50,006 nt of DNA from IMG/VR virus record IMGVR_UViG_3300025697_002467. One strand, 5' to 3'. Every line of letters starts with the position of its first letter. The first letter of the stretch is position 1. The notes beneath the pieces were generated by a model. It was not told where the DNA came from. It saw nothing but the letters and a program-made list of their open reading frames with translations, and searched no databases. Shown here in pieces: positions 1,177 through 49,390 of the stretch. The translations under genes were made by a program, and so were the position numbers. The DNA is from a virus. Lineage: Duplodnaviria; Heunggongvirae; Uroviricota; Caudoviricetes.

Positions 1177-1216
1177 TTCTTACTACAACAACCCACAAAA
1201 GTTGGAAACTAAGCCA
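1177..1216 (-). promoter_or_regulatory. repeated 40-bp motif, copy M1
   Basis: TGGCTTAGTTT-CCAACTT-TTGTGGGTTGTTG-TAGTAAGAA; its TAG is the stop codon of 1209..1631. Confidence 0.85.
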
Positions 1217-1631
1217 TTTTAGGCATGATTTCTCCAAGTTTTGGTAATCTCTCTTGAACTGTCTTAAGAACAGCATCTATATCCAGTGTGATTTCGATAC
1301 GTTGGCTAACAAACTGTACGGCTTGTTTAAGTGCCTCTCCGGTCATTTCTTCAAGATCCATCTGAGCCGAGCGTATGAGGGCTATTGTTTTTACAATATC
1401 TTCTCCACAGATGCTTTTGTGGAGAACCCAAATTTGTTCACCATAGATCTCAAACCGGTCTAATAACAGAATAGCCAGTGAGCCCCCATTTCTTGCATCT
1501 GGGTCAATTCGATCACCAAGGTTAAGAATATTCACCAAAACCTTAGTAGCACCCAGATTTCCCTTGGCCATCCTTACGATAGCATTAGTTGACCAATCCC
1601 CAGTAATTTGTAAGTCGTTTAGTTCAGGCAT
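1209..1631 (-). CDS. phage hypothetical protein, paralog of 100..627
   Basis: start re-called at MPELND; clear similarity to 100..627. Confidence 0.8.
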   Translation of the reverse strand: MPELNDLQITGDWSTNAIVRMAKGNLGATKVLVNILNLGDRIDPDARNGGSLAILLLDRFEIYGEQIWVLHKSICGEDIVKTIALIRSAQMDLEEMTGEALKQAVQFVSQRIEITLDIDAVLKTVQERLPKLGEIMPKMA

Positions 1632-1846
1632 TTTTCTCCATCCAATACACATTTCTTGAACCGTTTGACGGTTTGATTGAACCCGACAAGTTTGCCTGTT
1701 AGTTCTTCATCGTAGGCAGAACAAACCCATTTCTCATCTTCTTGAATAGTAAAGACACAAAACGGGCAAGTGATTCCGTTTATAGAGCAGTGTTTTTTGT
1801 CTGCCGGTTTGATTATAACAGAACCAGGTTTTTCAAATTGTATCAT
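1619..1846 (-). CDS. small Cys-rich hypothetical protein
   Basis: 75 aa, C-x5-CPFC-x11-C. Confidence 0.65.
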   Translation of the reverse strand: MIQFEKPGSVIIKPADKKHCSINGITCPFCVFTIQEDEKWVCSAYDEELTGKLVGFNQTVKRFKKCVLDGEKCLN

Positions 1847-1883
1847 TGTTTTTTCCTATTAATTGATTAGTTAAAAAATATCT

Positions 1884-1923
1884 CTCTTACTACAACAACC
1901 CACAACTTTTCAAAACTAAGCCA
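1884..1923 (-). promoter_or_regulatory. repeated motif, copy M2
   Basis: TGGCTTAGTTT-TGAAAAG-TTGTGGGTTGTTG-TAGTAAGAG. Confidence 0.85.
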
Positions 1924-1968
1924 AAAAGCACAACCCCCGTAAGCAGGATTACTCACAGGGGTTGTTAA
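1924..1968 (-). terminator. probable intrinsic terminator abutting motif M2
   Basis: minus strand ACAACCCCTGT...ACGGGGGTTGT stem followed by GCTTTTT. Confidence 0.7.
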
Positions 1969-1969
1969 A

Positions 1970-2130: not shown

Positions 2131-2167
2131 ATACCCTACTTCTCGTAATTATAGAATTTCTTTAAGG

Positions 2168-2699: not shown

Positions 2700-2709
2700 T
2701 ATTCTACTC

Positions 2710-3400: not shown

Positions 3401-3655
3401 TTATTTGAGGGGCTTACCGACTTCAACACGAATGACTGGTCCTGAGCCGATGGTGAAGTCTTCAATACCAACGGAAACTAGAACACCACCAGTATAAGAA
3501 AAGTCTCCACAGACAACGTAGGGTCGGAACATCTGGATACTGCCATCAGGGTTGATACATTTGACCGTAGCGTGGCCGTATGACCCCTCAAGGCTTATAT
3601 CAAGTACGTCACCAAGGTTGATGTCTTTCAAGTCTTGTAGTTTTTCAGGTTTCAT
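3401..3655 (-). CDS. hypothetical protein
   Basis: AGGAG RBS; first gene after motif M3. Confidence 0.7.
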   Translation of the reverse strand: MKPEKLQDLKDINLGDVLDISLEGSYGHATVKCINPDGSIQMFRPYVVCGDFSYTGGVLVSVGIEDFTIGSGPVIRVEVGKPLK

Positions 3656-3687: not shown

Positions 3688-3728
3688 GTTCTTACTACAA
3701 CAACCCACAAAAACTAGAAACTAAGCCA
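3688..3728 (-). promoter_or_regulatory. repeated motif, copy M3
   Basis: TGGCTTAGTTT-CTAGTTT-TTGTGGGTTGTTG-TAGTAAGAA. Confidence 0.85.
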
Positions 3729-6300: not shown

Positions 6301-6615
6301 TTAGGCATCAGAAGTGAGTTTAGCTTGAATGAGTTTAATGTCCTCATCGGTCAGGTCTTCATTTTCACCAGTGTCCATGTTGCAACGGACAATAGCAAAA
6401 TCACCATGGATCATGTCTTGGAGTTCGGGGATAAAGCGGTTGGGGAGTAAATTAGTGAGCTTGCCTTCTTCATTACAGATAATAGCAAGGGGTTCATTCA
6501 TCTCGAACCCGACCATTTCAATGGGTCCACCAACGACGTTTTGCAGCCCTTCAAGGCTGTTCTCAATATCAGTGATTTTAGGTTCATTTCCTACAGGGAC
6601 AATTATAACTTTCAT
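6301..6615 (-). CDS. DUF3846-family protein
   Basis: LEGLQNVVGGPIE...ICNEEGKL..LLPNR...IHGDF signature. Confidence 0.8.
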   Translation of the reverse strand: MKVIIVPVGNEPKITDIENSLEGLQNVVGGPIEMVGFEMNEPLAIICNEEGKLTNLLPNRFIPELQDMIHGDFAIVRCNMDTGENEDLTDEDIKLIQAKLTSDA

Positions 6616-7044: not shown

Positions 7045-7629
7045 TTAGACTCTTTCTATAACCTTGAGGCATTTCAAGGCTAATTGTCGTCCAAGCTGCT
7101 TTGCACCTGAAAGATTTCTGTTAACCCACATAATTTGTTCAGTGTAAATACTGGAACCTTCAGCTTTACTAGCTCCTGAGACACGAAGCCAAGTATGAGC
7201 GTCACAACCCTTCTGGTTAGTTCGTATATGTATTTTCACTAGTCCTTTCGGGGTGTTAACATCTGCCCAAACAGCACTGTCATGACGACGTTTCCAAGGT
7301 ATTCTACCAAGAGATGTATTAGGGACGGCATCCTTCATATCCCACTCTTTATAGGTGTTCAGAGCCATTTGACGTGCAATCCTTTTGGCTTGGGCGTAGC
7401 TGCCTGTCGTGGCATAGTTCCTGATGACTTTCCGGCCATCTTCTCGTCGAGCAAAAACTCGGATATCAATAGCATCTTCACAAGTTTTATTATCACAAGT
7501 ATGACTCAGATATAAATAAATTTTCACATCAGGTAAAGGGACAATGGCCTCTACTCTTGCATTGTGTGCAAGTACAGGATTGGTTTCTGCCCACGTAATT
7601 CGTTTAGGGAATCCTTTAAGTGGTGTCAT
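7045..7629 (-). CDS. hypothetical protein with internal two-domain repeat
   Basis: halves end AQAKRIARQMALNT and SGAKQLGRQLALKC. Confidence 0.75.
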   Translation of the reverse strand: MTPLKGFPKRITWAETNPVLAHNARVEAIVPLPDVKIYLYLSHTCDNKTCEDAIDIRVFARREDGRKVIRNYATTGSYAQAKRIARQMALNTYKEWDMKDAVPNTSLGRIPWKRRHDSAVWADVNTPKGLVKIHIRTNQKGCDAHTWLRVSGASKAEGSSIYTEQIMWVNRNLSGAKQLGRQLALKCLKVIERV

Positions 7630-7659
7630 CTCTTACCTCTCTTATCATCAGATACCTTC

Positions 7660-7833
7660 TTACTTGTTAACGGTGATTAAACCATCCACATCTCGTAGGG
7701 GTTTCCGACGAGGTGTTCTGACAGGTTTGGATGTTATTTTTATACCGGACTCAGCTGCCATTTTTCTAATAGCAGCCAAAACTTCATCCAGTTCCTTTTG
7801 TCTTTCAGGAGTCGGCCTTGGTATCCAGAGCAT
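7660..7833 (-). CDS. small hypothetical protein absent from the supplied ORF track
   Basis: MLWIPRPTPERQKELDEVLAAIRKMAAESG..., 57 aa, TAATG-coupled to 7833..8297. Confidence 0.6.
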   Translation of the reverse strand: MLWIPRPTPERQKELDEVLAAIRKMAAESGIKITSKPVRTPRRKPLRDVDGLITVNK

Positions 7834-8638: not shown

Positions 8639-9166
8639 TTAATTCTCCTGTAAATGTTTATTCCTGACTGTCGTGACATGTGCCACAATGGAGTCAGTTC
8701 TTGTCATCCGTTTGTCTTTGGTGTGGTGTTCAAAGGTCATATCTGTGATAACGGCTTTTGGTTTATCCAATACTTCTTGCGGGATTGAATTCGGCCATAC
8801 CGGTTTTATAGTCTTAAACTCACAGGTAACTCGGAGAGTCACATTTTTCATGTTGGGGATGTGGATAGTTGAACCACTGAGTTTCCCACCGTGTCCGACT
8901 GCTTTCAAGGCATCGTTGATGGGGCCTAAAAAATTATTTATTGCTTGGACTCTTGTATTTGTAGCCTTGTCAAAACAAGCCTTATGGTAAATACCGTTCA
9001 GCATTGGGTAATCGGTATTACCCAAACGTACCCAGTAGGCTTTAGTGCCTTTGTCTACAGGTTTTCCGCAGCAAGGGCAGCCATTTGTGGTTTGGTGGAT
9101 GAACACGAAGTCTGAGTTTTCTTTGAGGTATTCACCTTCTTCTTTGGTGTAAGTTTTCATTGCCAT
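8639..9166 (-). CDS. hypothetical protein, paralog of 9207..9410
   Basis: start re-called at MAMKTYTKEE with AGGAG RBS; CPCCG...Y.V...YH..C. Confidence 0.75.
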   Translation of the reverse strand: MAMKTYTKEEGEYLKENSDFVFIHQTTNGCPCCGKPVDKGTKAYWVRLGNTDYPMLNGIYHKACFDKATNTRVQAINNFLGPINDALKAVGHGGKLSGSTIHIPNMKNVTLRVTCEFKTIKPVWPNSIPQEVLDKPKAVITDMTFEHHTKDKRMTRTDSIVAHVTTVRNKHLQEN

Positions 9167-9206
9167 TGTTTTTCTCCTGTTAAAAAGTATCTCTCTTGTG
9201 CATAAC

Positions 9207-9410
9207 CTATTCTTTAGTAGCTTGTTTATAACAGAATATGTGGTACATAGCAGCTTCAGAAGAACCATTGCCTTGTACCCAATAACTTTCAGAGTTAGCT
9301 TGAATGATTTCCCCACAACAAGAGCAAGTGGTTGCTTGGAGGATTTTTACTCTACGAGCCAGCTCTTTCATATTTTTGATTTCATCTTTGGTATAAGTTT
9401 TCATTTCCAT
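9207..9410 (-). CDS. short paralog of 8639..9166
   Basis: MEMKTYTKDE; CSCCG...YWV...YH..C; duplicated 5' UTR. Confidence 0.7.
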   Translation of the reverse strand: MEMKTYTKDEIKNMKELARRVKILQATTCSCCGEIIQANSESYWVQGNGSSEAAMYHIFCYKQATKE

Positions 9411-9478: not shown

Positions 9479-10552
9479 TTAAGATAATTTTTCCAAAACT
9501 TCGTCTGCTATCTCACGGGTTAATCCTGTATCGGTGTCCGTTAGGACAAGACGATCCATCAAATGGGCCATGTCAGTTTCGTCATCAAGGATAACAAAAC
9601 GGGTGTATTGAGGATGCTCTTTTAACCAAGCAGCAATTTCGTCTCCACGTTGTTTCCCATCCAGTTCCGGGGTCATACCGATCATATCACCGGTTATCCC
9701 ACGTCCAAAGAAAAAACTTAGTTCACGGCTGCTTTTCCTCCATGATGAAGAAATAACAATTTGAGCTCCTGTTTTATCAGTAATTTCATTAAGGAGTTTA
9801 ACACACTGAGGTGCCATCCAGTAAATGATTTTGAGCATTAATTCTTGGTCGTCCGGCTCCATGTCTACAAGACGTTCTGTGGGTTCGGGTTTCCCAAGCT
9901 TGGCCCATTCTTTTTCAGGTTCCCAATCATCCATAGGGTTCATCACCCCATCCATGTCCAAGAATATGATCGGAGGTGGTTCCATAACGCCCCTGAGCAG
10001 CCCTACAACCTCTGTTAAGGTGTCAAAGCGAGCTTCGTCATAGGACGAGAACAAATCGTGACTCTGAGGCTTGTCAGGCGTTCCGTTTATTTCGGATTTC
10101 AGTTTTTTATAAACGGTGGCCAGTCGGCCCATTCCTAAGATGGGGTCCCAACTATTCGGGATACGTTTGACTATCTCCTGTTTCGTCAGGTCCATCATCT
10201 TCTGTTTGACTATTTCAAAAGCTAACATTGTTTTCCCACTACCTTGAGTGAGAGCTAACATTTTTTTCCCTTCGTCTTTGATTTTTTCTTTTGTGTATGC
10301 ATTCATTAAGTCCTGATAAAACTCAGACAGGAATTTGATTGTATCAGGTTCAGGGAATAATGTGTGGTCAGAAAGTGGACAGGTTGAATCTGGAGTGTCA
10401 TTTTTGTAAGCTAGTTTGAGGAATTCCCCAGAAATTGGGTTATACATCCCTCGGGTGGATTTAGGGTGGTGGCAACAATCATGATGATTTTCACCCCTTC
10501 GGTTCCAAGGGCAGTCTTTACAAGATTCAATTTGAGCATATAGAGTTTTCAT
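9479..10552 (-). CDS. Cys-rich N-terminal domain fused to HAD_SAK_2 (Swiss-army-knife RNA-repair-like HAD) phosphatase
   Basis: IIFLDMDGVMN, IVISSSWR, RGDEI..WL, FVILDD, TGLT motifs. Confidence 0.85.
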   Translation of the reverse strand: MKTLYAQIESCKDCPWNRRGENHHDCCHHPKSTRGMYNPISGEFLKLAYKNDTPDSTCPLSDHTLFPEPDTIKFLSEFYQDLMNAYTKEKIKDEGKKMLALTQGSGKTMLAFEIVKQKMMDLTKQEIVKRIPNSWDPILGMGRLATVYKKLKSEINGTPDKPQSHDLFSSYDEARFDTLTEVVGLLRGVMEPPPIIFLDMDGVMNPMDDWEPEKEWAKLGKPEPTERLVDMEPDDQELMLKIIYWMAPQCVKLLNEITDKTGAQIVISSSWRKSSRELSFFFGRGITGDMIGMTPELDGKQRGDEIAAWLKEHPQYTRFVILDDETDMAHLMDRLVLTDTDTGLTREIADEVLEKLS

Positions 10553-10587
10553 ACTTCAACAACCCACAACTTTCCAAAACTAAGCCG
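10548..10587 (-). promoter_or_regulatory. repeated motif, copy M6 (ends on the ATG of the next gene)
   Basis: CGGCTTAGTTT-TGGAAAG-TTGTGGGTTGTTG-AAGTATGAA. Confidence 0.85.
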
Positions 10588-14877: not shown

Positions 14878-14918
14878 CTTTCTACTACAACAACCCACAA
14901 CTTTTCAAAACTAAGCCG
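14878..14918 (-). promoter_or_regulatory. repeated motif, copy M7
   Basis: CGGCTTAGTTT-TGAAAAG-TTGTGGGTTGTTG-TAGTAGAA; its TAG is the stop of 14911..16314. Confidence 0.85.
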
Positions 14919-18976: not shown

Positions 18977-19016
18977 TTTCTACCCCAACAACCCACAAAA
19001 AATGAAAACTAAGCCA
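18977..19016 (-). promoter_or_regulatory. repeated motif, copy M8
   Basis: TGGCTTAGTTT-TCATTTT-TTGTGGGTTGTTG-GGGTAGAA. Confidence 0.85.
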
Positions 19017-20714: not shown

Positions 20715-20753
20715 CCTTAGTTCAACAACCCACAAGTTGAATAAACTAAGCCA
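20715..20753 (-). promoter_or_regulatory. repeated motif, copy M9
   Basis: TGGCTTAGTTT-ATTCAAC-TTGTGGGTTGTTG-AACTAAGG, directly after a TGA stop. Confidence 0.8.
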
Positions 20754-22609: not shown

Positions 22610-22655
22610 TTAAAAAACCTCCACACCTTTTACCCTAAAACGGTATAGTATCCCC

Positions 22656-23708: not shown

Positions 23709-23750
23709 CGGCTTAGTTTCAAGAAATTCTGGGTTGTTGGGGTATAAGAG
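23709..23750 (+). promoter_or_regulatory. repeated motif, copy P1 (right member of divergent pair)
   Basis: CGGCTTAGTTT-CAAGAAA-TTCTGGGTTGTTG-GGGTATAAGAG. Confidence 0.8.
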
Positions 23751-25303: not shown

Positions 25304-25343
25304 TGGCTTAGTTTCTCTTTTTTGTGGGTTGTTGAAGTAAGAA
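25304..25343 (+). promoter_or_regulatory. repeated motif, copy P2
   Basis: TGGCTTAGTTT-CTCTTTT-TTGTGGGTTGTTG-AAGTAAGAA. Confidence 0.85.
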
Positions 25344-25356
25344 AAGGAGAACAGTC

Positions 25357-25548
25357 ATGAAAATGATTACCTTGATTTCAGTAGCAGATAAAAATAAAGC
25401 ACTTCGGGTACTTAAAGATACCATAGGTGTGACTACTCAGTATAGTAAATTTATCCTTCAAAGTCTCCCCAGATACAATGCTTATGTGGATGAAAAAACA
25501 TTGAGGGTTTTTGATAAAAACAATATCTATTACAAGATGATGGCTTAG
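25357..25548 (+). CDS. small hypothetical protein between two motif copies
   Basis: AGGAG RBS; ends ATG GCT TAG inside motif P3. Confidence 0.7.
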   Translation: MKMITLISVADKNKALRVLKDTIGVTTQYSKFILQSLPRYNAYVDEKTLRVFDKNNIYYKMMA

Positions 25549-25580
25549 TTTTGAAAAGTTGTGGGTTGTTGTAGTAAGAA
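25541..25580 (+). promoter_or_regulatory. repeated motif, copy P3
   Basis: TGGCTTAGTTT-TGAAAAG-TTGTGGGTTGTTG-TAGTAAGAA. Confidence 0.85.
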
Positions 25581-27571: not shown

Positions 27572-27612
27572 CGGCTTAGTTTTGAAAAGTTGTGGGTTGT
27601 TGTAGTGTAGAA
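27572..27612 (+). promoter_or_regulatory. repeated motif, copy P4
   Basis: CGGCTTAGTTT-TGAAAAG-TTGTGGGTTGTTG-TAGTGTAGAA. Confidence 0.85.
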
Positions 27613-32022: not shown

Positions 32023-32062
32023 TGGCTTAGTTTCTCAAAGTTGTGGGTTGTTGATGTAAGAA
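32023..32062 (+). promoter_or_regulatory. repeated motif, copy P5
   Basis: TGGCTTAGTTT-CTCAAAG-TTGTGGGTTGTTG-ATGTAAGAA, directly after TAA. Confidence 0.85.
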
Positions 32063-34973: not shown

Positions 34974-34982
34974 ACAGCTCTT

Positions 34983-35022
34983 TGGCTTAGTTTTCGTTTC
35001 CCGTGGGTTGTTGATGTAAGAA
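34983..35022 (+). promoter_or_regulatory. repeated motif, copy P6, upstream of cas operon
   Basis: TGGCTTAGTTT-TCGTTTC-CCGTGGGTTGTTG-ATGTAAGAA. Confidence 0.8.
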
Positions 35023-35077
35023 TGATGGTCTTAACTATACGGAGACAAATATTACTCTTAGAGTAATATAAAAAATA

Positions 35078-37885: not shown

Positions 37886-37898
37886 AAAGGATTTGAAA

Positions 37899-39134: not shown

Positions 39135-40024
39135 AAGACATTTTACTGATACCAAAGATACAAGCTGAAAGTGCCAATGCTCATTCCAGTCCATACTCCG
39201 GCGGATTTCCTGCTATGACGGCTTGGATGGGTTTTGCTCATTTGCTTGAAAGAAAACTTCAACAGACTTCTTATGCAGGGATCAAGTTTAAAAGTGTTGG
39301 GGTGGTGAGTCATGATTTTACTTTGAGAAATTTTAAGCACCCCAAGGATTTCTGTTCCGCTATTATTGGCAGACGTTTACCCCCTCAAAACCCTAGTCAA
39401 AAAGGGGCACCTCTGATTCCCGACTTAACCTGTGACCTAACGGTTTCTATAGTGTTGGAATGTTCAGGGATGGGGATGATAGATCATGAAGATTTCACCA
39501 ACACTATTAGGAAAATCATTTATAGTCTTAAATTGGCTAGTGGTGATATTGTAAACCTCCAAAAACCAGAAGTTCTCACCGTCCATGATGAGAAAAGCCA
39601 AAAAACCCTGCTCCGTCGGCTTATGCCAGGTAACTGTCTGATTGAACGTCGGGATCTGATACAGAAAGCTATGGAAAACGGCCAAGATGCCCTTGAAGCT
39701 GTTCTTTCTCATACTTGTATAGAACACTCATATAATGAGGTAACAGATAAGTGGGAAAGTAAACGGAAAACATCAGGTTGGCTGGTTCCAATTACTACAG
39801 GTTATCAAGGACTCACTAAATTGGGTCCTGCTGAAAACACACGAGATGCAAACGATACCCCACACCGATTTGCTGAAGCTATTGTAACATTATGTGAATT
39901 TATCATGCCATATAAAATTGTCGAACTTGATAACATGCTATGGCACTATCATTCTGATATGAACAAAGACCTTTATCTTTGTCAACAGAATAAACCTACA
40001 TACTCAGGAGAAAACTATGTCTAA
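39131..40024 (+). CDS. csy2: type I-F Csy2/Cas5f
   Basis: IQAESANA.SSPYS.GFPAMTAWMGFAH.LERKL; GWLVPITTGYQGL; HRFAE; L..MLWHY. Confidence 0.95.
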   Translation: MKDILLIPKIQAESANAHSSPYSGGFPAMTAWMGFAHLLERKLQQTSYAGIKFKSVGVVSHDFTLRNFKHPKDFCSAIIGRRLPPQNPSQKGAPLIPDLTCDLTVSIVLECSGMGMIDHEDFTNTIRKIIYSLKLASGDIVNLQKPEVLTVHDEKSQKTLLRRLMPGNCLIERRDLIQKAMENGQDALEAVLSHTCIEHSYNEVTDKWESKRKTSGWLVPITTGYQGLTKLGPAENTRDANDTPHRFAEAIVTLCEFIMPYKIVELDNMLWHYHSDMNKDLYLCQQNKPTYSGENYV

Positions 40025-41048
40025 AGTCAAAATCCCCGGGAATTTGTCATTCCGCAAGCGTTTAGAACCCTCAAAAGGAATCCTTTTTGGAACTTCCTGG
40101 GACAAACGCCGAGAAATTTGTGTCCCTTTAACCAATGAACTTATCACTGTCAGAGGTGGTAAAACTCACCACCAAAATTTCCCTGACAATCGTGAGAAAG
40201 GTGAGTCTGAGTTGGGTGATGCCAACATCCACACTCTTGATTCCTGTTTGTTGTCCAAGGATCACGATACCGTGCGTTTAACTTACACCTTGAAAGTTCT
40301 CAACGGTGTTGCCGGTATGGAAAGCTGTAATGACAAAGAATTCCTTAACCTGTTCGAGGAATGCTTAAAAGAAAAACTGGATACTGTTGGAGTGAAAGTT
40401 CTGGCCCATCGTTATGCCACCAACATTGCCAATGGTCGTCCTTTGTGGAAAAACCGTGAAGCTACCCATATTGAAACGGTCGTTCGTTGCCGTGGCAGTG
40501 AGACAGAGTGGGTTTTTGACGGTAAAGAAATCCCATTGCATACTTTCGATTATGAAAGTTCTGCATTGACAGGGCTAACTCAAGTCATTGAAGATGCTTT
40601 GTTAGGTAACACTGACCTTATCATTCTGGAAGTGTCCTCATACGCTTTGGTCGGTCAAGGTCAGCCGGTATTCCCCAGTCAAGAATTCATTCAGGATCAA
40701 GGGAATGGTTTCAGCTCGAAGAAAGACGGGAAGAAAAGCAAAGTTTTATACTTCCCCGAAGATGTAGCCGGCCTGCACCCGCAAAAAATCGGTAATGCCA
40801 TCCGTACTATTGATTCATGGTATGGAGACGGTGTCTCTCCGATTGCTGTGGAACCTTACGGTGCCCAGCCTACTTTCAATACCCATCACCGTAGCCCTTA
40901 CGAACAAAAGGACTTTTATTCCATGTTGGTGAAATTTGTGAACAAGGAAGAATTGACCGAATCCGAAGTTCATTACTTCATGGCCATGCTGGTCAAAGGT
41001 GGTGTGTTTGGTGCAGCCAAATCCAAGCCTAAACCCAAATCCAAGTAG
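40017..41048 (+). CDS. csy3: type I-F Csy3/Cas7f
   Basis: LSF.KRL.PS; RYATNIANGRPLWKNR; VFPSQEF; KSKVLY; HPQKIGNAIRTIDSWY; IAVEPYG; MAMLVKGGVFG. Confidence 0.97.
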   Translation: MSKVKIPGNLSFRKRLEPSKGILFGTSWDKRREICVPLTNELITVRGGKTHHQNFPDNREKGESELGDANIHTLDSCLLSKDHDTVRLTYTLKVLNGVAGMESCNDKEFLNLFEECLKEKLDTVGVKVLAHRYATNIANGRPLWKNREATHIETVVRCRGSETEWVFDGKEIPLHTFDYESSALTGLTQVIEDALLGNTDLIILEVSSYALVGQGQPVFPSQEFIQDQGNGFSSKKDGKKSKVLYFPEDVAGLHPQKIGNAIRTIDSWYGDGVSPIAVEPYGAQPTFNTHHRSPYEQKDFYSMLVKFVNKEELTESEVHYFMAMLVKGGVFGAAKSKPKPKSK

Positions 41049-41060
41049 GAGAAAAAGAAC

Positions 41061-41630
41061 ATGAAATACTACCAAGAAATTACGTTGATCCCTGACCCTG
41101 TTGGGATGCCCCTGAGTTATTTACAGCAACGTCTGTTCTATCAGGTTCATGCAGCCTTGGCTCGTGAACCTGGGGATAATTCCGTGGGTATATCTTTCCC
41201 TGATTACGATGGGGAAGGATGCCAACTGGGAAATAAAATAAGGTTGTTAGCTCCGACTGAGGATATTTTAAAAAACCTTCAACTTCGACACCTACTTCTC
41301 AGGTTAAGTGATTATTCTCATTTGTCAGATATCCGACAGGTGCCTGAGAAAATTGAAAGCTATGCTTTTTTTCGTCGGGTTCAACCGAAAACCAGCCTTG
41401 GCAGCATAGCTCGTCGAAAAGCTAGACGTGAAGGGATTACAGTTGATGAAGCCTTGAATCTTTTAGGACCACCTAAAAAAACACCCAAACTCCCCGCTGT
41501 TTCAATGGAGAGTAAAAGTTCAGGTCAACAATATCCTTTGTTTGTTTCCCGAGTTTTATCTGATGAGCCAGCTACGGGGTCATACAGTACGTATGGATTG
41601 AGTTCCACAGGTACTGTACCTTTATTTTAA
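41061..41630 (+). CDS. cas6f: type I-F Cas6f/Csy4 crRNA endoribonuclease
   Basis: MKYYQEITL.PD; QVH.AL; GISFPDY; LG.KIRL; RRVQPK; S.SSGQ.YPLF; YSTYGLS..TVPLF. Confidence 0.95.
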   Translation: MKYYQEITLIPDPVGMPLSYLQQRLFYQVHAALAREPGDNSVGISFPDYDGEGCQLGNKIRLLAPTEDILKNLQLRHLLLRLSDYSHLSDIRQVPEKIESYAFFRRVQPKTSLGSIARRKARREGITVDEALNLLGPPKKTPKLPAVSMESKSSGQQYPLFVSRVLSDEPATGSYSTYGLSSTGTVPLF

Positions 41631-41748
41631 TCAAAACAAAAAACCTAAGTGGTTATGGCTACTTAGGTTTTTTGCTTTTAACATTGGTAAAAACATGTAA
41701 TCATGTATAGGTCTTTGAAAACTCAATAGTTTTATGATTTATGCTCCT
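41631..41748 (+). promoter_or_regulatory. CRISPR leader
   Basis: AT-rich 118 bp between cas6f and first repeat; IHF-like CTTTGAAAACTCAATAGTTTTA at 41713-41734. Confidence 0.8.
41637..41674 (+). terminator. 14-bp perfect inverted repeat in the leader (cas-operon terminator or leader motif)
   Basis: CAAAAAACCTAAGT-ggttatggct-ACTTAGGTTTTTTG. Confidence 0.7.
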
Positions 41749-43680
41749 GTGAACTGCCGAGTAGGCAGCTTAGAATAACAGTTTGTACCGGTATTGTTTG
41801 GCAGATGTGTGAACTGCCGAGTAGGCAGCTTAGAATCTGCTCTGGAAATTTTGAGTATCCATACTGCCGTGAACTGCCGAGTAGGCAGCTTAGAATTGTT
41901 TGATTTTCTGACTCATTCCACCGAACGGGTGAACTGCCGAGTAGGCAGCTTAGAATTGTTTTGTCGAACCGACATTGATTTTTGAAAAGTGAACTGCCGA
42001 GTAGGCAGCTTAGAATTGGAGGTCAGAAAGGAAACGGTAACTATGTCTAGTTAACTGCCGAGTAGGCAGCTTAGAATTCAGACAATAATTCAAGAAAGTA
42101 TCAATTAAAGTGAACTGCCGAGTAGGCAGCTTAGAATTGGAAAACCATAGAATCAGAGAAGCTGGATTCGTGAACTGCCGAGTAGGCAGCTTAGAATACA
42201 TGTGTCGTAACCGTGTTCACGAAAAATTCGTGAACTGCCGAATAGGCAGCTTAGAATGGGTAACGATGACGTTGGAAAATGTAGACAGAGGTACACTGCC
42301 GAACAGGCAGCTTAGAATGACAGGTCGCATCGTGAATTTCTGGATCTGAAGTTAACTGCCGAGTAGGCAGCTTAGAATATTGATATTGATGCTAATAACG
42401 GCAGTGATGAGTGAACTGCTGAATAAGCAGCTTAGAATACAAGTCACAATATTGGATTAGCAAGCACATAGTTAACTGCCGAATAGGTAGTTTAGAATTT
42501 GCTTTTTTGTGACTGTACCTAGAACCTGTGGTTAACTGCCGAGTAGGCAGCTTAGAATCGAAGAACACGTCGGATCTCCCTGAAAATATCGTGAACTGCC
42601 GAACAGGCAGCTTAGAATAGTTCATCACACAAGGCCATTAGCTCGTCCACCGTTAACTGCTGAACAGGTAGTTTAGAATACAGGGAATCTGCGGACTTTG
42701 CCAACCTTGATGTAAACTGCCGAATAGGCAGCTTAGAATTGGTCAACCGAACTACACAAAATGTCTTTTGCATGAACTGCCGAGTAGGTAGTTTAGAATT
42801 GTCCTGAAATGCCTGTTGTCACAAATGAGATGTTAACTGCCGAATAGGCAGTTTAGAATTATGTGGGATCAAAGCTCTCCCAAGGGTGGGTGTTAACTGC
42901 CGAGCAGGCAGCTTAGAATCATGTATAAGTTGCTCTCAATCCACAATTTAGGTGAACTGCTGGATAAGTAGTTTAGAATAATTTAATCAGGTCATTCATA
43001 ACGGCCATTTTAGTTAACTGCCGAATAGGCAGCTTAGAATTCTTGTTGGATGCAAGTGTCTTATCAACATTTGTTAACTGCCGAATAGGCAGCTTAGAAT
43101 TGAGACAGATCCCAAAGCTGAAATCGAATCCAGTGAACTGCCGAACAGGCAGCTTAGAATAAGGAACAGAAGCAGCTAGTTCAATTGGTACTGTTAACTG
43201 CCGAACAGACAGCTTAGAATGAAATTCCTTCATCCACATATTCGGCAACTATGTGAACTGCCGAACAGGTAGTTTAGAATTTTATGGAACTCACTACGAC
43301 CGCCAGACCGGATCGTGAGCTGCCGAATAGGTAGTTTAGAATCTATTGACACCAAAGCAGATTGAATCCGCGGGAACTGCCGAATAGGCAGCTTAGAATG
43401 ATGAAACTCTATGACGAGGAACGAGTGGAGGGTGAACTGCTGAATAAGCAGCTTAGAATACAATCGAATCAATGCCGTCTAAAAGCTCCGCAGGAACTGC
43501 TGGATAAGCAGCTTAGAGTTCGTATGGAGTAACCGTGAAAAACTGCCGGACAGGTAGTTTAGAATTTAGAAATAAGGGTGTGGCATTGAAGCCGAGTGAA
43601 AACTGCCGAATAGGCAGCTTAGAATAAGCACATCAGCTATGTTAAACCGCACTGCGTGAACTGCTGAATAAGTAGCTTAG
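41749..43680 (+). CRISPR. type I-F CRISPR array, 33 repeats / 32 spacers
   Basis: 28-bp consensus GTGAACTGCCGAGTAGGCAGCTTAGAAT (CTGCC/GGCAG stem); spacers mostly 32 bp (range about 18-34); uniform at leader end, heterogeneous distally; last repeat truncated at GCTTAG. Confidence 0.99.
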
Positions 43681-43717
43681 CTTAGTTTCCAAAAGTTGTG
43701 GGTTGTTGGGGTAGAAG
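43680..43717 (+). promoter_or_regulatory. repeated motif, copy P7, fused to the last CRISPR repeat
   Basis: GCTTAGTTT-CCAAAAG-TTGTGGGTTGTTG-GGGTAGAA. Confidence 0.85.
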
Positions 43718-43751: not shown

Positions 43752-45299
43752 ATGGCCAAAACAATCATTGATAGTGTTACTTTAAATTTTACTGACCTTA
43801 CCGGTGCCAAGACAGGCTGTACCAAACTCGGTTCCAACAAATTCTGGAAGGGCTGGGTTGAAGACCTTGGAGACGGCACAGGCAATTTCGAGTGTTGCTG
43901 GGGTGCTACAGGCACACCAGGTAAAGACACCGGAAGCAAACGAGGTATTGACCTTGATGATGCCCAAACCTTGCTCAATAAGAAAGTTAAATCAAAAGTA
44001 AAAAAAGGTTATACCCTCCTTGAAGTTCGTTCCGATGAGGAAGAGGTGGCCAAGGCTGCTGACAACGGTGTAAACCTCACTGCTGACAAGAAAGCCCCCA
44101 AAAAGAAAAAAGCTGTCAAGAAATCAACTTTCAATCCTGCTATCGGAAACTTGCTGGCTACCATCTATAATGAAACCAGCCGTGTTGTCACAGCAGGTCT
44201 TTCCTCTCAGGCTGGCTCATCTGCTGATAACCCTATAGGTAACCTGTCTGATGCCCAGTTAGACGTAGGTGGTGGCATTTTGGACGATATAGAGGCATTC
44301 CTGACACAGGAACTTGGCCATGAAGACACAGCTAACCGTGTTCAAACCTTGGCTTTGTCTGCTGATGGTGTACCTTCTGATGGTGTCATTGATTTGACTA
44401 ATCAGTACATGTCGAATGTTCCGAGAGAAATTGACCGTTCACAAAGAGGTAGAGGCAACCTGCATCGTCTGGTTATTTCATCCTTTGAACGCTTGGAAGA
44501 GCAACGAAAGTTTTTACAGTTGCTTCGTGATGCTCACCTGACCAAAGGTGTCTTTAAAGCTGCTGCTAATGCTTCTACAGGTGGTAAAGAACAGATTTGG
44601 TATGAAGGCCTCAATTGCCTTATCGAATTGTGTGAGTCTGGATCAGCCGAATTCAAGAAAGTGTCAGACATATTCAACAACAACCAATCTCGTAAAAACC
44701 AGAACTGGTTCAGTGGTGGACGTTCTACTCTCCGCTTGAAACGGATTTTCAAGTTCACTCGTAATGGTACAGACAAACAGTTTGCCAAGTATGCTAAAGA
44801 GATGGCTTCCAAGCCCAATGCAGTCGGCAATATTTTTGCTTGGCACGGCACACGTACTGAGAACCTTCTCGGTATCAGTAAAACTGGCCTCTTGATGCCT
44901 GAAAACTTGCCTCGTGGTATCCACGTATCAGGTAAAGCTTTCGGCAAAGGGATTTATCACGCCCCTGATATTTCAAAAATAAGAACCATTCACGGTGTGC
45001 AAACAGATGGTACGAATGGAGCTTTGAAGTCTATGAACTATACCTCTTCAAGGGGAGCTTATTACGGTTCAAATAACACTTCAAATTCGGCCTTCATGTA
45101 CCTGCAGGAAGTTGCTTTAGGTAACGGTGATGTTCATACAGCCCCTTGCTGGGACAAACACCGTCCGAATAACTACCCGAAGAACGATTTCATTTATGCA
45201 GCAGCCGGCGGTTGTAGCACGTTATCCCATGATGAATTGGTAACTTTTTCTCAGGATGCTCAAATATTCCGCTATTTGCTTGAGATTGAAGCAAGATAA
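43752..45299 (+). CDS. WGR + PARP-regulatory + PARP catalytic domain ADP-ribosyltransferase
   Basis: WGR: SNKFW...WGATG; PARP_reg: IGNLSDAQL..G..IL...LTNQYMSNVP; catalytic H-Y-E: AWHGTR, GKAFGKGIY, KSMNY, EVALG, HDELVTF..Q..RYL. Confidence 0.92.
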   Translation: MAKTIIDSVTLNFTDLTGAKTGCTKLGSNKFWKGWVEDLGDGTGNFECCWGATGTPGKDTGSKRGIDLDDAQTLLNKKVKSKVKKGYTLLEVRSDEEEVAKAADNGVNLTADKKAPKKKKAVKKSTFNPAIGNLLATIYNETSRVVTAGLSSQAGSSADNPIGNLSDAQLDVGGGILDDIEAFLTQELGHEDTANRVQTLALSADGVPSDGVIDLTNQYMSNVPREIDRSQRGRGNLHRLVISSFERLEEQRKFLQLLRDAHLTKGVFKAAANASTGGKEQIWYEGLNCLIELCESGSAEFKKVSDIFNNNQSRKNQNWFSGGRSTLRLKRIFKFTRNGTDKQFAKYAKEMASKPNAVGNIFAWHGTRTENLLGISKTGLLMPENLPRGIHVSGKAFGKGIYHAPDISKIRTIHGVQTDGTNGALKSMNYTSSRGAYYGSNNTSNSAFMYLQEVALGNGDVHTAPCWDKHRPNNYPKNDFIYAAAGGCSTLSHDELVTFSQDAQIFRYLLEIEAR

Positions 45300-45330
45300 A
45301 TCCAGCTATTTCCATTTTGGAAACAGTTGA

Positions 45331-45360
45331 TCCCTGCCTTTACGGGCGGGGGTTTTTTTT
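45331..45360 (+). terminator. intrinsic terminator abutting motif P8
   Basis: CCCTGCCT-TTAC-GGGCGGGG then G and a long T-tract. Confidence 0.85.
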
Positions 45361-45400
45361 GGCTTAGTTTCTAATTTTTGTGGGTTGTTGTAGTAAGAAG
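45360..45400 (+). promoter_or_regulatory. repeated motif, copy P8
   Basis: TGGCTTAGTTT-CTAATTT-TTGTGGGTTGTTG-TAGTAAGAA. Confidence 0.85.
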
Positions 45401-45452: not shown

Positions 45453-45764
45453 ATGACTAATTCAAAAAATGCTCAGAAGTTTGCCTCGTTTACCTATGCC
45501 GAGCAAAAAGAACTTTCAAATGCTCTTAGACACCACTTGAGTGAGTGTCAGGTACGAGAAGAATCTCAACGGGATGATGATCCGATCAAACTCTTTGCGG
45601 AAAGTCTTCAAAATGTCTGTAAAGATAAATTTGTAGATTTAAGCCCTGCTGCTGCTCTGGAAAAAACTACCCACGAGACAGCAAAAGAGCGGATTACTCG
45701 TGTAGCATTGATGAGCAATGCTTTGTCCTATGCTTTAAAAGAGGGTATCAATAATGAGACTTAA
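45453..45764 (+). CDS. hypothetical protein
   Basis: start re-called at MTNSKN with GGAGG RBS. Confidence 0.7.
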   Translation: MTNSKNAQKFASFTYAEQKELSNALRHHLSECQVREESQRDDDPIKLFAESLQNVCKDKFVDLSPAAALEKTTHETAKERITRVALMSNALSYALKEGINNET

Positions 45765-46131
45765 AAAAGGTGAAAAAAGGCACATAAACCCAGATGGTAA
45801 TATTGGTGGGAAAGTTAGTTTCGGTTCTTTTGTTTCGAAAGATTCCTTTATATCATATGATTCTATAGTCCAATCAGGGTCTACAGTAAAAGAGAAGTCC
45901 ACGGTAATACAATCTACTATTTCGGGTAAATCAATTATTCGGAATAATAGTTTTGTACGACGGTATGTTGTTTGGGAACAGTCTATTGTAGATAATAGTA
46001 ATGTAGATAATTCTTCAACTAATAAGGAAGAAATACACACATCCATTATACAAAATTCACAAGTGGCTAATTGCAGCCTTGTGAATTGCTACGGTATTAA
46101 AAATATGGAAATTAAAAAGGTAACAAAATGA
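45754..46131 (+). CDS. short-repeat (beta-helix-like) protein, AT-rich
   Basis: RHINPDG.IGG.V then S/I/V-rich 5-6 residue repeats. Confidence 0.6.
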   Translation: MRLKKGEKRHINPDGNIGGKVSFGSFVSKDSFISYDSIVQSGSTVKEKSTVIQSTISGKSIIRNNSFVRRYVVWEQSIVDNSNVDNSSTNKEEIHTSIIQNSQVANCSLVNCYGIKNMEIKKVTK

Positions 46132-48632
46132 TAAAAACGGAACAGTTTATCAACCAGCTTACTAAAGCCTTGGTTGAAAAAGACGTTGAGAATGTTTACC
46201 GCCAGTTATTCCAAATGGGGATACCTGACAGTGTGATTACTTCTCCCTATGGTGGTGATGGTATGTTGAAAAGTAAAGCTGAGAACCTGATAGCTCTACT
46301 TGAATTCAAATATGACTATGACTTCACCAGTCGTAAAGACACCATCAAAGTTCTGATACAGGCTTTATACTATCTTAAAAAGGCTGAGTCTGCCGGGGAT
46401 ATCCTTCCTTCAATTGTTTTTGTCGGGGATAAAAACGAATGCTTTGTTATTCATTTGAATAGCCTTCAAAAGTATTTGGATGCTGATATTGATTGGACGA
46501 TTGCCCCTTCAAGTGCTGGGGTTAAAAACCCAGAACTGACATTGGAAATGTTCAATGATAAAGAAGTGAACCCTTTCGTATTTGATGTAGGTAAAGGGTT
46601 CGATTTCTCAGAAGTTGTCAACAAAATACTGGACTTGAACAGTAATGTCGTTCGGTTGGTTCGTATCACTGAGAAAAACATCAATAACATCTTTGAATAT
46701 TTCGTTGGGAAAGTCTTGGTGACCTCAAAGAAGCTGGACACCAATGCTCAAGTAAGCCTGTTCATCAATATCCTGACCAATCCTGATGAGAACTACATCC
46801 ATCCGAAAAAGAAAAACACCCTGATTACACCTGCCGGTGAAATTACAGTTAAAGGTGCAAAGTTTGCATCCTTCTTCTCTCACTTTGAACGGGAATACAA
46901 GCCCTCAGAGAAAGAGAACCTGATAGCTATTTCCGACCGGTTAATTGAGGACGAAACCCGCCGGAGAGAGGGTGCATTTTTCACCCCAACAATCTGGGTA
47001 GATGAAGCTCATAAAATGATTACGGAGCAATTCGGCTCGGATTGGAAAGAGAAGTATGTTGTTTGGGATTGTGCCTGTGGAACAGGTAATTTGACTCGTG
47101 ATTATAAATTCAAGGAATTATATTGTTCTACCTTGGTGCAAGAAGAAATTGATATGATGATTCAGAATAGGATTAATCCTGAAGCTGTAAAGTTTAAATA
47201 TGATTTTTTGCAGGATGTACCTGAAGGGGTTGTCACAGGTTTTGGTGGTGGTTGGGAAGAGAAATTACCTGAAGGTCTGGTTAAAGCCCTTGATGAAGGC
47301 AAACCTATGATTATGTTGATCAACCCTCCTTATGGTACAGCAAGTAATCGAGACGAATCTTCTAAAAAAGGAGTTGCTTTTAACCAGGTGAATGCTGAAA
47401 TGAAAGCTGATAAATTAGGAGCTTGTTCCCAGCAACTTTATGCACAATTCATGTATAAAATTGCTCGTATTAAAGAGCATTACAGTCTAGCAGATATGAA
47501 TGTGGCTATTTTCAATAAGCCAAACTTTTTAACCGCCCCCACCTACAAGAAATTCCGTTCTTTTTGGGTTAGCCAATTCAGAATGAAAAAAGGGATGTTG
47601 TTTCAAGCTAGTAATTTCTCGGATGTTTCCACTCAGTGGGGGATTCTGTTTAGTATCTGGAAATCAGGAGGTTATGGAAAATATATGACCTGGGTTCAGG
47701 CTGATGTTAAAGAACAGGTTCCTGTTAAAGGCTTGGGTTTGAATACCATCCAAACGATAGGTACAAAAGATTTTGATAATATGGACAATAACTACCCTGC
47801 TTCAAAGTGGGTCAGGGAAGAAACCAAAAATGATAGAGTATCTTTTAAATATGTCTTATGTTTAAAGTCATCTATAAATATAGGAAACAAGATCAAAACT
47901 CTTCCTATAAATGCTTTTGGGACTTTCATATCCGATACAAATACTGTTTATCAAAACTCACAAGGGGTAGTAATACTTAACACACGAAATTCTGCAAATC
48001 AGGGTTCTTTACCTATAATCCCTGAGAATTTCCGCAAGGTTTGCTCCCTCTTTACAGCCCGTAAAACCATAACAGGGAAATATGCCAACTGGATAAACGA
48101 CAAGGATGAATATAAAAGACCAAACCAAACCCACGATGATTATGAACAATGGAACAACGATGCTATTATTTATTCTTTGTTTCACTCAGCCTCAAACCAG
48201 TCTTCACTCAGAGATATCACGTACAAAGATAAGCAGTGGGATATTGAAAACGAATGGTTCTGGATGTCTATTGAATCAATCAAAGGGTTGGCCAATGAAC
48301 ACTCCAATCAGGCCGTCTATGACGACTGTAAGGCTAAAGGCAAGGAAAGGCATGTTTGTACCCTCCTGAAGGATTTAAAGCTCTCTGACGATGCCTCAGA
48401 CCTTTTAGTTGAGGCCAACAAATTGGTCGAGAAATCTTTCAAGTTCCGTGAAATGATGAATGAAGAACACCCTGAATATCACCTCAACTCCTGGGACGCT
48501 GGCTGGTATCAGATCGTCAAGATCCTCAAGGAATACCTGCCTGATGACCTGAAAGAGTTCCGTTTAGGGTATAAGAAGCTGGAGGATAGACTCCGAAGTG
48601 GAGTTTATCAGTTTGGTTTCTTGAGGATGTAA
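46128..48632 (+). CDS. type IIG-like restriction-modification protein (PD-(D/E)xK-like N-terminus + N6-adenine MTase + TRD)
   Basis: GDGML...LLEFKYD; GAFFTP; motif I VWDCACGTGNL; motif IV LINPPY; LYAQFMY. Confidence 0.8.
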   Translation: MIKTEQFINQLTKALVEKDVENVYRQLFQMGIPDSVITSPYGGDGMLKSKAENLIALLEFKYDYDFTSRKDTIKVLIQALYYLKKAESAGDILPSIVFVGDKNECFVIHLNSLQKYLDADIDWTIAPSSAGVKNPELTLEMFNDKEVNPFVFDVGKGFDFSEVVNKILDLNSNVVRLVRITEKNINNIFEYFVGKVLVTSKKLDTNAQVSLFINILTNPDENYIHPKKKNTLITPAGEITVKGAKFASFFSHFEREYKPSEKENLIAISDRLIEDETRRREGAFFTPTIWVDEAHKMITEQFGSDWKEKYVVWDCACGTGNLTRDYKFKELYCSTLVQEEIDMMIQNRINPEAVKFKYDFLQDVPEGVVTGFGGGWEEKLPEGLVKALDEGKPMIMLINPPYGTASNRDESSKKGVAFNQVNAEMKADKLGACSQQLYAQFMYKIARIKEHYSLADMNVAIFNKPNFLTAPTYKKFRSFWVSQFRMKKGMLFQASNFSDVSTQWGILFSIWKSGGYGKYMTWVQADVKEQVPVKGLGLNTIQTIGTKDFDNMDNNYPASKWVREETKNDRVSFKYVLCLKSSINIGNKIKTLPINAFGTFISDTNTVYQNSQGVVILNTRNSANQGSLPIIPENFRKVCSLFTARKTITGKYANWINDKDEYKRPNQTHDDYEQWNNDAIIYSLFHSASNQSSLRDITYKDKQWDIENEWFWMSIESIKGLANEHSNQAVYDDCKAKGKERHVCTLLKDLKLSDDASDLLVEANKLVEKSFKFREMMNEEHPEYHLNSWDAGWYQIVKILKEYLPDDLKEFRLGYKKLEDRLRSGVYQFGFLRM

Positions 48633-48633
48633 A

Positions 48634-48837
48634 ATGAAACCCTGTAATCAAGAAAACAGATACATGAAAAAGGTAAAATACCGTCCGGCTAAGGATGGTG
48701 AGGTAGTATGCCAGGATTGTTTTCATTTCACATACCACCCATTCCCGAAACCTTGTTGTGTTGATGAAAATAATTTCCACATGTTTTTCTTAAAAGACCC
48801 AGAAAAATATACTTGTAGTAGAAGTCGGCCAGCTTAA
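48634..48837 (+). CDS. small Cys-rich protein
   Basis: CQDCFHF...CC...C. Confidence 0.65.
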   Translation: MKPCNQENRYMKKVKYRPAKDGEVVCQDCFHFTYHPFPKPCCVDENNFHMFFLKDPEKYTCSRSRPA

Positions 48838-48856
48838 TTTTCTAAGGAGAAATACA

Positions 48857-49345
48857 ATGAAAAATTTACTATTGAGAGCAGCTGCTATACTTATTTTTTC
48901 TGTGATGATATTAGTTTTATACTCATATATGACAGCAAATCCAAATAAGTTTAACTTCTCGGCCAAAGAAGCACCCTCTGAAACGATAATCTATGCCACA
49001 GGTAAAGTGGTAACAGCAACGACATGGAATGCTACTGTTATGGTACTTACACGCCCTCCAAGGGCAGGTGAGCAGCCTGAGAGGCTCACTTTTACAAAAC
49101 AGGATACCGATACAATCCACATTCAAGAGAAATTCACCCCGACATTAAATGATGAGGCATTGAAAAACAGAAACGAGCAGACTTTAAAAACCTTAAAGAA
49201 CCTGAAAAAGCTATTACCAAAGAATACCACTGTATCTTATGACCCATCTTTTGGGGGCATTGTGATATTTGCAGAAGGTCGAAGATTTGATTTTGGGGTA
49301 GCTTCTAATGAAACAATTACCTGTGATGAAACCTCTTTAAAATGA
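48857..49345 (+). CDS. membrane-anchored or secreted hypothetical protein
   Basis: N-terminal hydrophobic helix; AAGGAG RBS. Confidence 0.75.
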   Translation: MKNLLLRAAAILIFSVMILVLYSYMTANPNKFNFSAKEAPSETIIYATGKVVTATTWNATVMVLTRPPRAGEQPERLTFTKQDTDTIHIQEKFTPTLNDEALKNRNEQTLKTLKNLKKLLPKNTTVSYDPSFGGIVIFAEGRRFDFGVASNETITCDETSLK

Positions 49346-49348
49346 TTC

Positions 49349-49390
49349 TGGCTTAGTTTCGGGTAGTAGTGGGTTGTTGTAGTAGATGAA
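49349..49390 (+). promoter_or_regulatory. repeated motif, copy P9
   Basis: TGGCTTAGTTT-CGGGTAG-TAGTGGGTTGTTG-TAGTAGA. Confidence 0.8.

Follow-up and report, generated by a model that had tools for sequence, protein, structure and literature searches.

The stretch of viral DNA analysed here (50,006 nt of IMG/VR record IMGVR_UViG_3300025697_002467, Caudoviricetes; referred to at its full length as the window) carries a two-box sequence motif that recurs just ahead of genes, and this motif, together with the protein that may read it, is the subject of the present work. The window holds approximately 80 open reading frames (ORFs), mostly small and without family matches, among which we identified genes for a nicotinamide adenine dinucleotide (NAD)-dependent DNA ligase, a PARP-like protein, a CinA-like protein, a DEDDh exonuclease and a protein with a HAD 'RNA repair' domain, as well as a type I-F CRISPR system consisting of a cas3-csy1-4 operon and a 33-repeat array, with no cas1. 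Pfam searches with about 55 of the window ORFs recovered no sigma factor, polymerase or clear transcription factor, and two weak matches to HTH_17 were registered (ORFs 12187-12744 and 14001-14867). By means of exact-protein look-ups we found the window proteins encoded on a 402,136-bp contig and in many Antarctic lake assemblies; the source is an uncultivated 'huge phage' of roughly 400 kb. Neither a megablast of 10 kb against GenBank phages nor a ligase-based search of viral contigs returned a match. Such look-ups allowed a walk of some 38 kb past the window's left end, which brought the part of the 402-kb genome that was read to approximately 88 kb.

A two-box motif on two divergent gene arms

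We searched the whole window with the 30-nt core GGCTTAGTTT-N7-TTGTGGGTTGTTG (box 1, spacer and box 2), tolerating up to three mismatches. Exactly 19 matches were recovered, against none in 100 dinucleotide-preserving shuffles, and they reproduce the original prediction of ten minus-strand copies left of 23.7 kb and nine plus-strand copies to the right of it (cores at 1186 to 23667 and 23710 to 49350, respectively). Mismatches are confined to four cores, one in each of three and two in the fourth; the other 15 of the 19 are exact. When the flanks are aligned the consensus extends to Y-GGCTTAGTTT-Y-N6-TTGTGGGTTGTTG-n-A-GTA-RRAAR, with no conservation further out; the base preceding the motif is T or C in every copy, and the complete GTA is present in 17 of the 19 (G33 in 18, T34 in 19 and A35 in 18 copies; the exceptions are CTA in the copy at 20718..20752 and GTG in that at 27573..27607). 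Motif positions 36-41 are rich in purines. The spacer had been described as fixed in length and free in sequence, which holds for all 19 copies and for 81 distinct contexts (see below), its first base favouring a pyrimidine and its fifth and sixth A or T; one spacer, TGAAAAG, recurs in four window copies. The starts of GGCTTAG and GGGTTG lie 21 bp apart and the site is asymmetric, again as claimed. Over positions 0-41 the site contains 54.6 bits of information (corrected for small sample size), while around 12.4 bits would be enough for 19 sites in the window.

Each copy either is intergenic or overlaps the end of the preceding ORF, at its stop codon, by 7 nt or less, and in all of them the next gene is co-oriented with the motif (confirming the proposed co-orientation), its start codon lying 0-62 nt downstream of A35. 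In three copies the TAG of box 1 doubles as the stop codon of the upstream ORF. The copies are given below by the coordinates of motif positions 1-35, along with two terminator-like hairpins that adjoin them (loci outside the window are designated by L numbers).

1181..1215, minus strand: motif copy, exact core; gene 814-1143; box 1 TAG is the stop codon of the upstream ORF
1888..1922, minus strand: motif copy, exact core; gene 1619-1846; strong terminator hairpin just upstream (1930-1965)
1930..1965, minus strand: intrinsic-terminator-like hairpin, 16 pairs and a T run; adjoins the motif copy ending at 1922
3693..3727, minus strand: motif copy, exact core; gene 3401-3655; orthologous copy in the relative L022
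6644..6678, minus strand: motif copy, exact core; gene 6301-6615; orthologous copy in L024
9443..9477, minus strand: motif copy, exact core; gene 9207-9410; orthologous copies in L021 and L024
10552..10586, minus strand: motif copy, exact core; 357-aa HAD-domain ORF 9479-10552, whose ATG is motif positions 35-37
14883..14917, minus strand: motif copy, exact core; gene 14001-14867; box 1 TAG is the stop codon of ORF 14911-16314
18981..19015, minus strand: motif copy, exact core; gene 18628-18951; orthologous copy in L015
20718..20752, minus strand: motif copy, exact core, CTA for GTA; gene 20495-20701; orthologous copies in L012 and L015
23662..23696, minus strand: motif copy, left half of a back-to-back divergent pair; gene 23246-23626
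23710..23744, plus strand: motif copy, one mismatch, right half of the divergent pair; CinA-like gene 23786-24301
25305..25339, plus strand: motif copy, exact core; gene 25357-25548
25542..25576, plus strand: motif copy, exact core; NAD-dependent DNA ligase gene 25607-27559; box 1 TAG is the upstream stop codon
27573..27607, plus strand: motif copy, exact core, GTG for GTA; gene 27621/27669-28691
32024..32058, plus strand: motif copy, exact core; 526-aa ORF 32076-33656; copy and gene both missing from L008
34984..35018, plus strand: motif copy, two mismatches; type I-F cas3-csy1-csy2-csy3-csy4 operon 35078-41630
43679..43713, plus strand: motif copy, A in place of the initial G; adjoins the last degenerate CRISPR repeat; PARP-like gene 43752-45299
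45329..45354, plus strand: intrinsic-terminator-like hairpin, 11 pairs and a T run; runs into the motif copy at 45361
45361..45395, plus strand: motif copy, exact core; genes 45453-46131 and 834-aa ORF 46128-48632
49350..49384, plus strand: motif copy, one mismatch; ORF 49436-50005, continuing off the window

Nine further copies, likewise intergenic and co-oriented, lie in the 38 kb walked past the window's left end, where their orientation tracks that of the genes through one further convergent and one further divergent switch. A polar sequence of the Chi or KOPS kind is ruled out by this strictly intergenic placement and by copies that follow gene orientation through several switches. The stronger statement that the motif organises the whole window stood only in part: all 19 copies are co-oriented with genes, whereas several intergenic gaps (of 40-390 nt) have no motif, and a motif-free plus-strand gene (22656-23249) lies inside the minus arm. 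This 197-aa ORF, without a Pfam family, is a real gene, given that L012 and L035 carry it with 87% identity; the ORF 22610-22891 on the minus strand is probably a shadow of it. The gene lacks a ribosome-binding site, and a sigma-70-like pair (TCCACA-18-TATAGT) ends 7 nt before its ATG.

In window 43640-43713 the last degenerate CRISPR repeat ends in GCTTAG and adjoins the copy that begins AGCTTAG; since relatives with other cas types keep the motif, we regard the resemblance between box 1 GCTTAG and the 3' part of the type I-F repeat as a coincidence. In window 41631-41748, directly 3' of csy4, we noticed a terminator-like hairpin with a T run, and the leader of about 70 nt that follows it has no motif and contains a sigma-70-like pair (TTGGTA-16-TATAGG), for which reason the array may be transcribed by a promoter class other than that of the cas operon. 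NAD-related genes form a cluster in this region: in the window they comprise the PARP-like protein (43752-45299, with WGR, PARP regulatory and PARP catalytic domains), the NAD-dependent ligase and CinA, and outside it (L045-L050) an NAD synthase, NAPRTase-like and nicotinamidase-like proteins, NMNAT and NUDIX/NrtR, accompanied by a Macro domain protein, an ADP-ribosylglycohydrolase and a RelA/SpoT-like fragment.

Conservation in relatives, the predicted start site and a sigma-like gene

Searched in one genome for each of 185,579 species of bacteria and archaea, the exact motif did not occur; it was found in 39 phage-like metagenome contigs, which yield the 81 distinct contexts mentioned above. 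Within IMG/VR it was present on only one contig, of 74.7 kb, as a single copy even with a looser pattern. Several of the motif-bearing contigs are syntenic with the window (70-87% nucleotide identity), and ten orthologous copies could be paired between the window and these relatives. Across the pairs the boxes are nearly invariant (225/230 identical, 98%; 23 positions) and the spacers match at chance level (19/70, 27%) without ever changing in length; the copy ahead of the ligase gene (25542..25576), for instance, has an orthologue in L008 with a wholly different spacer. Identity in the flanks amounts to 42% over the 30 nt upstream, 86% at positions 31-35 and 53% at positions 42-65. We read this pattern of conservation as the footprint of a protein that contacts two boxes at a fixed distance. 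Back-to-back divergent pairs such as that at 23.66-23.74 kb are seen in relatives too, and in five relative loci (L014, L016, L041, L029, L034) the motif lies 6-15 nt upstream of transfer RNA (tRNA) genes. Since copies directly precede tRNA genes, the motif acts on transcription and not on translation. Three of these tRNAs (L014:4303-4378, L016:3293-3368, L041:817-892), beginning 6-7 nt after motif position 35, have a CUA anticodon (amber-reading suppressor; labelled Pyl by ARAGORN); the inspected ORFs nevertheless read normally under the standard code, and TAG serves as a stop inside the motif.

Three independent bounds constrain the transcription start indirectly. Shine-Dalgarno sequences with a properly spaced start codon begin no earlier than position 35, and in seven distinct copies exactly there; in the copy at 10552..10586 the ATG of a 357-codon ORF occupies positions 35-37, with no preceding ribosome-binding site and no nearby in-frame alternative start; and the 5' ends of the tRNAs in relatives fall at positions 41-42. 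Because of these bounds, the conserved GTA and the run of purines after it, transcription is predicted to start at positions 33-35, and the message of the HAD-domain ORF (9479-10552) would then be leaderless. Box 2 would therefore span approximately -17 to -5 and box 1 approximately -34 to -25, the classical geometry of sigma-dependent promoters. A spacer of fixed length and free sequence, and a co-oriented position upstream of genes (tRNA genes included), are likewise what a promoter of the two-box, sigma-70-family kind displays. Written as GGCTT-N16-GGGTT, with the start 7-9 nt later, the site recalls in its spacing the promoters of extracytoplasmic function (ECF) sigma factors.

No resemblance to the sigma-70 or sigma-54 consensus had been reported for the motif, and this was borne out. 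The hexamers of the housekeeping promoter (TTGACA-N16-18-TATAAT) are misplaced or absent, and position 36, which would be its invariant T, is T in only 3 of the 19 copies; the GG/GC spacing of sigma-54 promoters (-24/-12) is unmet, as 12 nt past either GG lies variable spacer or A35/A36. In consensus scans sigma-70-like matches were not enriched in the window and were depleted in the 20-50 kb part (30 versus 43.2 +/- 6.2 and 10 versus 20.3 +/- 3.9 in shuffles). A strong stem-loop terminator lies just upstream of only two of the 19 copies (1930-1965 and 45329-45354).

The search for a phage sigma factor or RNA polymerase, suggested along with the motif, found neither in the window and no polymerase in the 88 kb read, and did lead to a sigma candidate on the same contig. 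This protein, P0001 (329 aa, L045:10001-10990), came to light when unannotated ORFs of the walk were tested; its gene lies some 8-9 kb to the left of the window, in the same strand arm. P0001 matches the NCBIfam sigma-70 family TIGR02937 (E 3e-4, residues 158-311), and a profile built from 38 homologues matches the solved sigma-H sequence, 3mzy, over its whole length (E 3e-6), pairing P0001 residues 155-311 with sigma-H residues 4-160. The AlphaFold model (mean predicted local distance difference test, pLDDT, of 80) contains helical bundles at residues 143-223 and 258-317, and its top Foldseek matches are ECF sigma factors: Mycobacterium tuberculosis SigH and RpoE with NepR (both structures at a probability of 1.00), SigK, SigW and Escherichia coli sigma-E. 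Sequence profile and model thus point to a divergent two-domain protein of the sigma-70 family, with a predicted sigma-2 followed by a sigma-4 domain. Its family has at least 538 homologues, several of them on contigs of 346-528 kb, and an identical protein is encoded on the 402,136-bp contig. The N-terminal extension comprises around 150 residues, and no anti-sigma partner was identified. Residues 1-60 (L045:10001-10180) form a conserved beta-rich domain in the model (pLDDT 86) with the family-invariant R8, G12, T46, H48, R52, W54 and RYF 58-60, for which no fold match was found in the PDB.

Three results connect this sigma-like gene with the motif, one being the nine further copies described above. 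The relative contig L004, recovered by the motif alone, encodes a sigma 77% identical to P0001. In the phage of L054, whose sigma is 37% identical, another two-box motif was found, GGATCATCT-N12/13-RGAGTAG, co-oriented with genes and upstream of them (seven copies in 20 kb, L054:1457-19560), with a geometry that is not alignable with that of the window motif. L054 also carries inverted CTAGATTCTGTGGGT repeats, and on the huge-phage contig L055 (sigma 42% identical) the region L055:1-6817, some 3-10 kb upstream of the sigma gene, holds a CRISPR array as well as a gene for Cas3.

We consider it probable that the motif is a private promoter of this phage of about 400 kb, read by the host core RNA polymerase in complex with P0001. 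The original prediction of a phage-specific promoter class read by a phage sigma is supported by the position and orientation of the copies, the footprint, the copies ahead of tRNA genes and the nearby ECF-like sigma gene; a phage RNA polymerase or a host ECF sigma appears less likely as the reader. In the mechanism that we propose, the host core enzyme would carry the phage sigma-70-family factor, built of two domains as in ECF (group 4) sigmas. Of these, sigma-4 would recognise box 1, GGCTTAG(TTT), around -34 to -25, whereas sigma-2 would bind box 2, TTGTGGGTTGTTG, around -17 to -5 and melt it, with the 7-nt spacer setting nothing other than their distance. Transcription would begin at the GTA (33-35) and proceed through a purine-rich initial region that in many copies continues into the ribosome-binding site. 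Each of the 19 copies on the two divergent arms would then stand at the front of a transcription unit, with between one and about ten genes per unit, and transcripts from upstream units would probably read through wherever a terminator is absent. As for timing, the 74.7-kb contig of a relative has a single motif copy, ORFs on one strand that reach 3,871 aa and one weak baseplate match, and this stretch probably encodes virion parts. Given that such a probable virion block holds one copy, the promoter class would probably serve early or middle non-structural genes and not late or virion genes, which is suggestive only.

Possible gene exchange at the motif copies

The relatives differ from the window by many gene gains, losses and replacements, and the copies had been proposed to drive module shuffling in the manner of the PeSL elements (early promoter plus stem-loop) of T4-type phages. 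Twelve of 47 homology-block ends lie within 60 nt of a motif, an excess over random positions (p = 6e-6) that is not significant when gene ends are taken as the reference (p = 0.08). The proposal is thus weakly supported: breakpoints at the motif exceed those at random positions, yet they are not clearly more numerous than at gene boundaries, and motif-free events occur. Among the events that end at a copy, L008 has two extra genes between the ligase gene and its promoter and lacks the 32024 promoter along with its 526-aa gene, and in relatives other genes take the place of those that directly follow the promoters at 27573 and 45361. The HAD gene ('Swiss Army Knife RNA repair' domain; window 9479-10586), with its two flanking copies, is arranged differently in L018 and L028, where three gene arrangements are seen around this promoter. 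No copy is present at either edge of the events at 7045-7833, 8639-9316 and 29.4-31.5 kb, nor at that of an insertion in L028. At best, the copies would be mild recombination hot spots, or they may mark the edges of self-contained transcription units.

One further event that ends at a copy involves the CRISPR-Cas systems themselves. In the window (34392-35080) and in L008 (L008:2-6373) the same DEDDh exonuclease gene (85% amino acid identity) is followed by different cas types: the type I-F cas3-csy1-4 operon in the former and, in the latter, type I-G/I-U-like genes with no motif before them, which encode Cas_GSU0053, Cas_GSU0054 and a Cas3 whose HD domain is C-terminal. Related huge phages thus differ at one locus in the type of a whole CRISPR-Cas system.

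Alternative readers, known systems and significance

Several observations weigh against the promoter and phage-sigma pairing that we favour. The hallmark bases of ECF promoters (AAC in the -35 and CGT in the -10 element) are not found in GGCTTAGTTT and TTGTGGGTTGTTG, and the excess of information over the norm for a single sigma may betray a second reader. Pfam returned nothing significant for P0001, its TIGR02937 score is below the NCBIfam cut-off, and its fold matches have low TM-scores (0.3), with domains that are differently oriented. Covariation of sigma and motif among distant homologues is mixed: besides L054, which has a motif, the more distant sigma loci L053 and L055 were inspected over 16-21 kb, and no two-box motif was obviously repeated there. 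The 88 kb covered of 402 kb leave room for another sigma or a phage RNA polymerase. Moreover, the sigma gene has no motif copy directly upstream, a co-oriented one lying 6 kb before it. The gene follows a non-coding gap of 485 nt with weak sigma-70-like hexamers; on account of these hexamers and of the missing motif, the gene could be switched on by the host RNA polymerase and thereafter feed back on itself. Rfam returned nothing for this gap, nor could any conservation be aligned between it and the corresponding gaps in three distant phages. Non-coding, ORF-free gaps of 480-556 nt precede the sigma gene in four phages whose sigmas are 37-42% identical to one another (L045:9517-10000, L053:9523-10000, L054:8687-9164, L055:9446-10000).

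Other readers of the motif were weighed against this evidence. A phage-encoded RNA polymerase (single-subunit and T7-like, or multisubunit and phiKZ/AR9-like), acting with no phage sigma, would account for near-identical copies of 54.6 bits, as in T7-type promoters, and for the purine-rich initial transcribed region after the conserved GTA, and some 310 kb of the genome lie outside the inspected part. We nevertheless hold it to be unlikely: the site is bipartite, its conserved block being broken by a neutral 7-nt spacer of fixed length in -35/-10 geometry, a sigma signature unlike the contiguous sites of single-subunit enzymes; no polymerase domain was detected by Pfam in the large window ORFs or is listed for the genes of the 38 kb beyond; and jumbo phages that encode sigma factors have been reported to lack polymerases of their own (PMC7824862). 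That the copies are instead sites of a phage regulator (e.g., an activator like T4 MotA that cooperates with the primary sigma of the host), or repeats with a role in recombination or structure, is quite unlikely in our view. The excess information would suit more than one reader, some synteny breakpoints fall at copies and the same spacers recur (four window copies share TGAAAAG). The copies have no sigma-70 -10 hexamer beside them, though (T at position 36 in only the three copies noted above), and they are asymmetric, always co-oriented, gene-proximal and placed before tRNA genes as well; their orientation follows the genes through several switches, which excludes polar sequences of the Chi/KOPS type, and the breakpoints are not significantly above ordinary gene boundaries.

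The reader might also be an alternative, ECF-type sigma of the host, with the phage sigma serving another promoter class. In keeping with this are the GGCTT-N16-GGGTT geometry, which resembles that of ECF promoters, and a phage sigma gene without a motif upstream. A host regulon motif would be expected among the 185,579 bacterial and archaeal species, from which the exact motif is absent; it is present instead in the 39 phage-like contigs, and motif and sigma orthologue occur on the same contigs, all of which makes a host sigma very unlikely.

A promoter class private to a phage and read through a phage sigma has well-described counterparts. In phage 7-11 the sigma gp47 directs the host core enzyme to a bipartite promoter, GTAAtg-N16-aCTA, and the phiEco32 protein gp36 is a phage sigma that redirects the host core enzyme to private promoters (PMC8948821). 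Sigma-encoding jumbo phages reportedly lack an RNA polymerase of their own (PMC7824862), and sigma factors have been noted in huge phages (PMC7162821). The 7-11 and phiEco32 systems share with the pair proposed here a divergent phage sigma and private, bipartite, non-host promoters repeated before phage transcription units. Compared with 7-11, the promoter sequence differs and the boxes are much longer and invariant (10 + 13 nt + GTA), at least 28 copies occur in 88 kb as against eight promoters, the candidate sigma bears at its N-terminus an additional conserved domain (about 60 residues, without a fold match), and the genes that would be served look non-structural and not late. The likeness to ECF (group 4) promoters lies in a predicted sigma-2 plus sigma-4 reader, boxes near -35 and -10 with a rigid spacer, G-rich 5' halves of the boxes and a predicted start 7-9 nt after the GTT of box 2, while the AAC/CGT bases are absent here and the sigma is phage-encoded with an N-terminal extension of about 150 residues.

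In the Bacillus phage SPO1 transcription switches to phage sigmas (PMC13401047). Phage sigmas there replace the host sigma and private -35/-10 boxes set temporal classes, as may be the case here, although the host group and the boxes are unrelated and the temporal class of our motif is only inferred. The SPO1 proteins gp28 and gp33/34 reportedly serve the middle and late promoters. The PeSL elements of T4-type phages combine an early sigma-70 promoter with a stem-loop terminator (PMC2839356, PMC4122927). They resemble the copies in being promoter-bearing intergenic repeats that flank variable small genes in plastic regions, where some rearrangements end; the promoter here is not of the sigma-70 type, a stem-loop accompanies only two of the 19 copies and there is no significant enrichment over gene boundaries. 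A literature search with the box sequence returned only unrelated primers.

The use of a phage sigma with private promoters is a long-established strategy, and what stands out in the present case is the extreme uniformity of the sites, the large and unnamed sigma family and its unexplained N-terminal domain. A bolder combination of these points, which we regard as possible albeit doubtful, is that the sigma family reads an unusually long promoter (at least 23 invariant bp, about 55 bits) and that the copies are preferred junctions for cassette exchange. Under such a scheme the extra N-terminal domain, or a second phage factor, could help recognition, and the exchanged cassettes may include whole CRISPR-Cas systems of different types at one locus. 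If true, huge phages would have lineage-specific, mutually independent sigma/promoter pairs whose specificity approaches that of T7 while using the host core enzyme.

The private promoter read by P0001, which remains the reading that we favour, yields a precise map of predicted transcription units for about one quarter of the 402-kb genome of an uncultivated phage, including those of a cas operon without adaptation genes and of NAD-related genes, and it names a candidate sigma/promoter pair. The sigma family to which P0001 belongs is large, unnamed and widespread in huge phages, with at least one distant lineage that has box sequences of its own. If the pairings hold, this family would explain how huge phages take over the host RNA polymerase, and it could be a source of non-cross-reacting sigma/promoter pairs for engineering.

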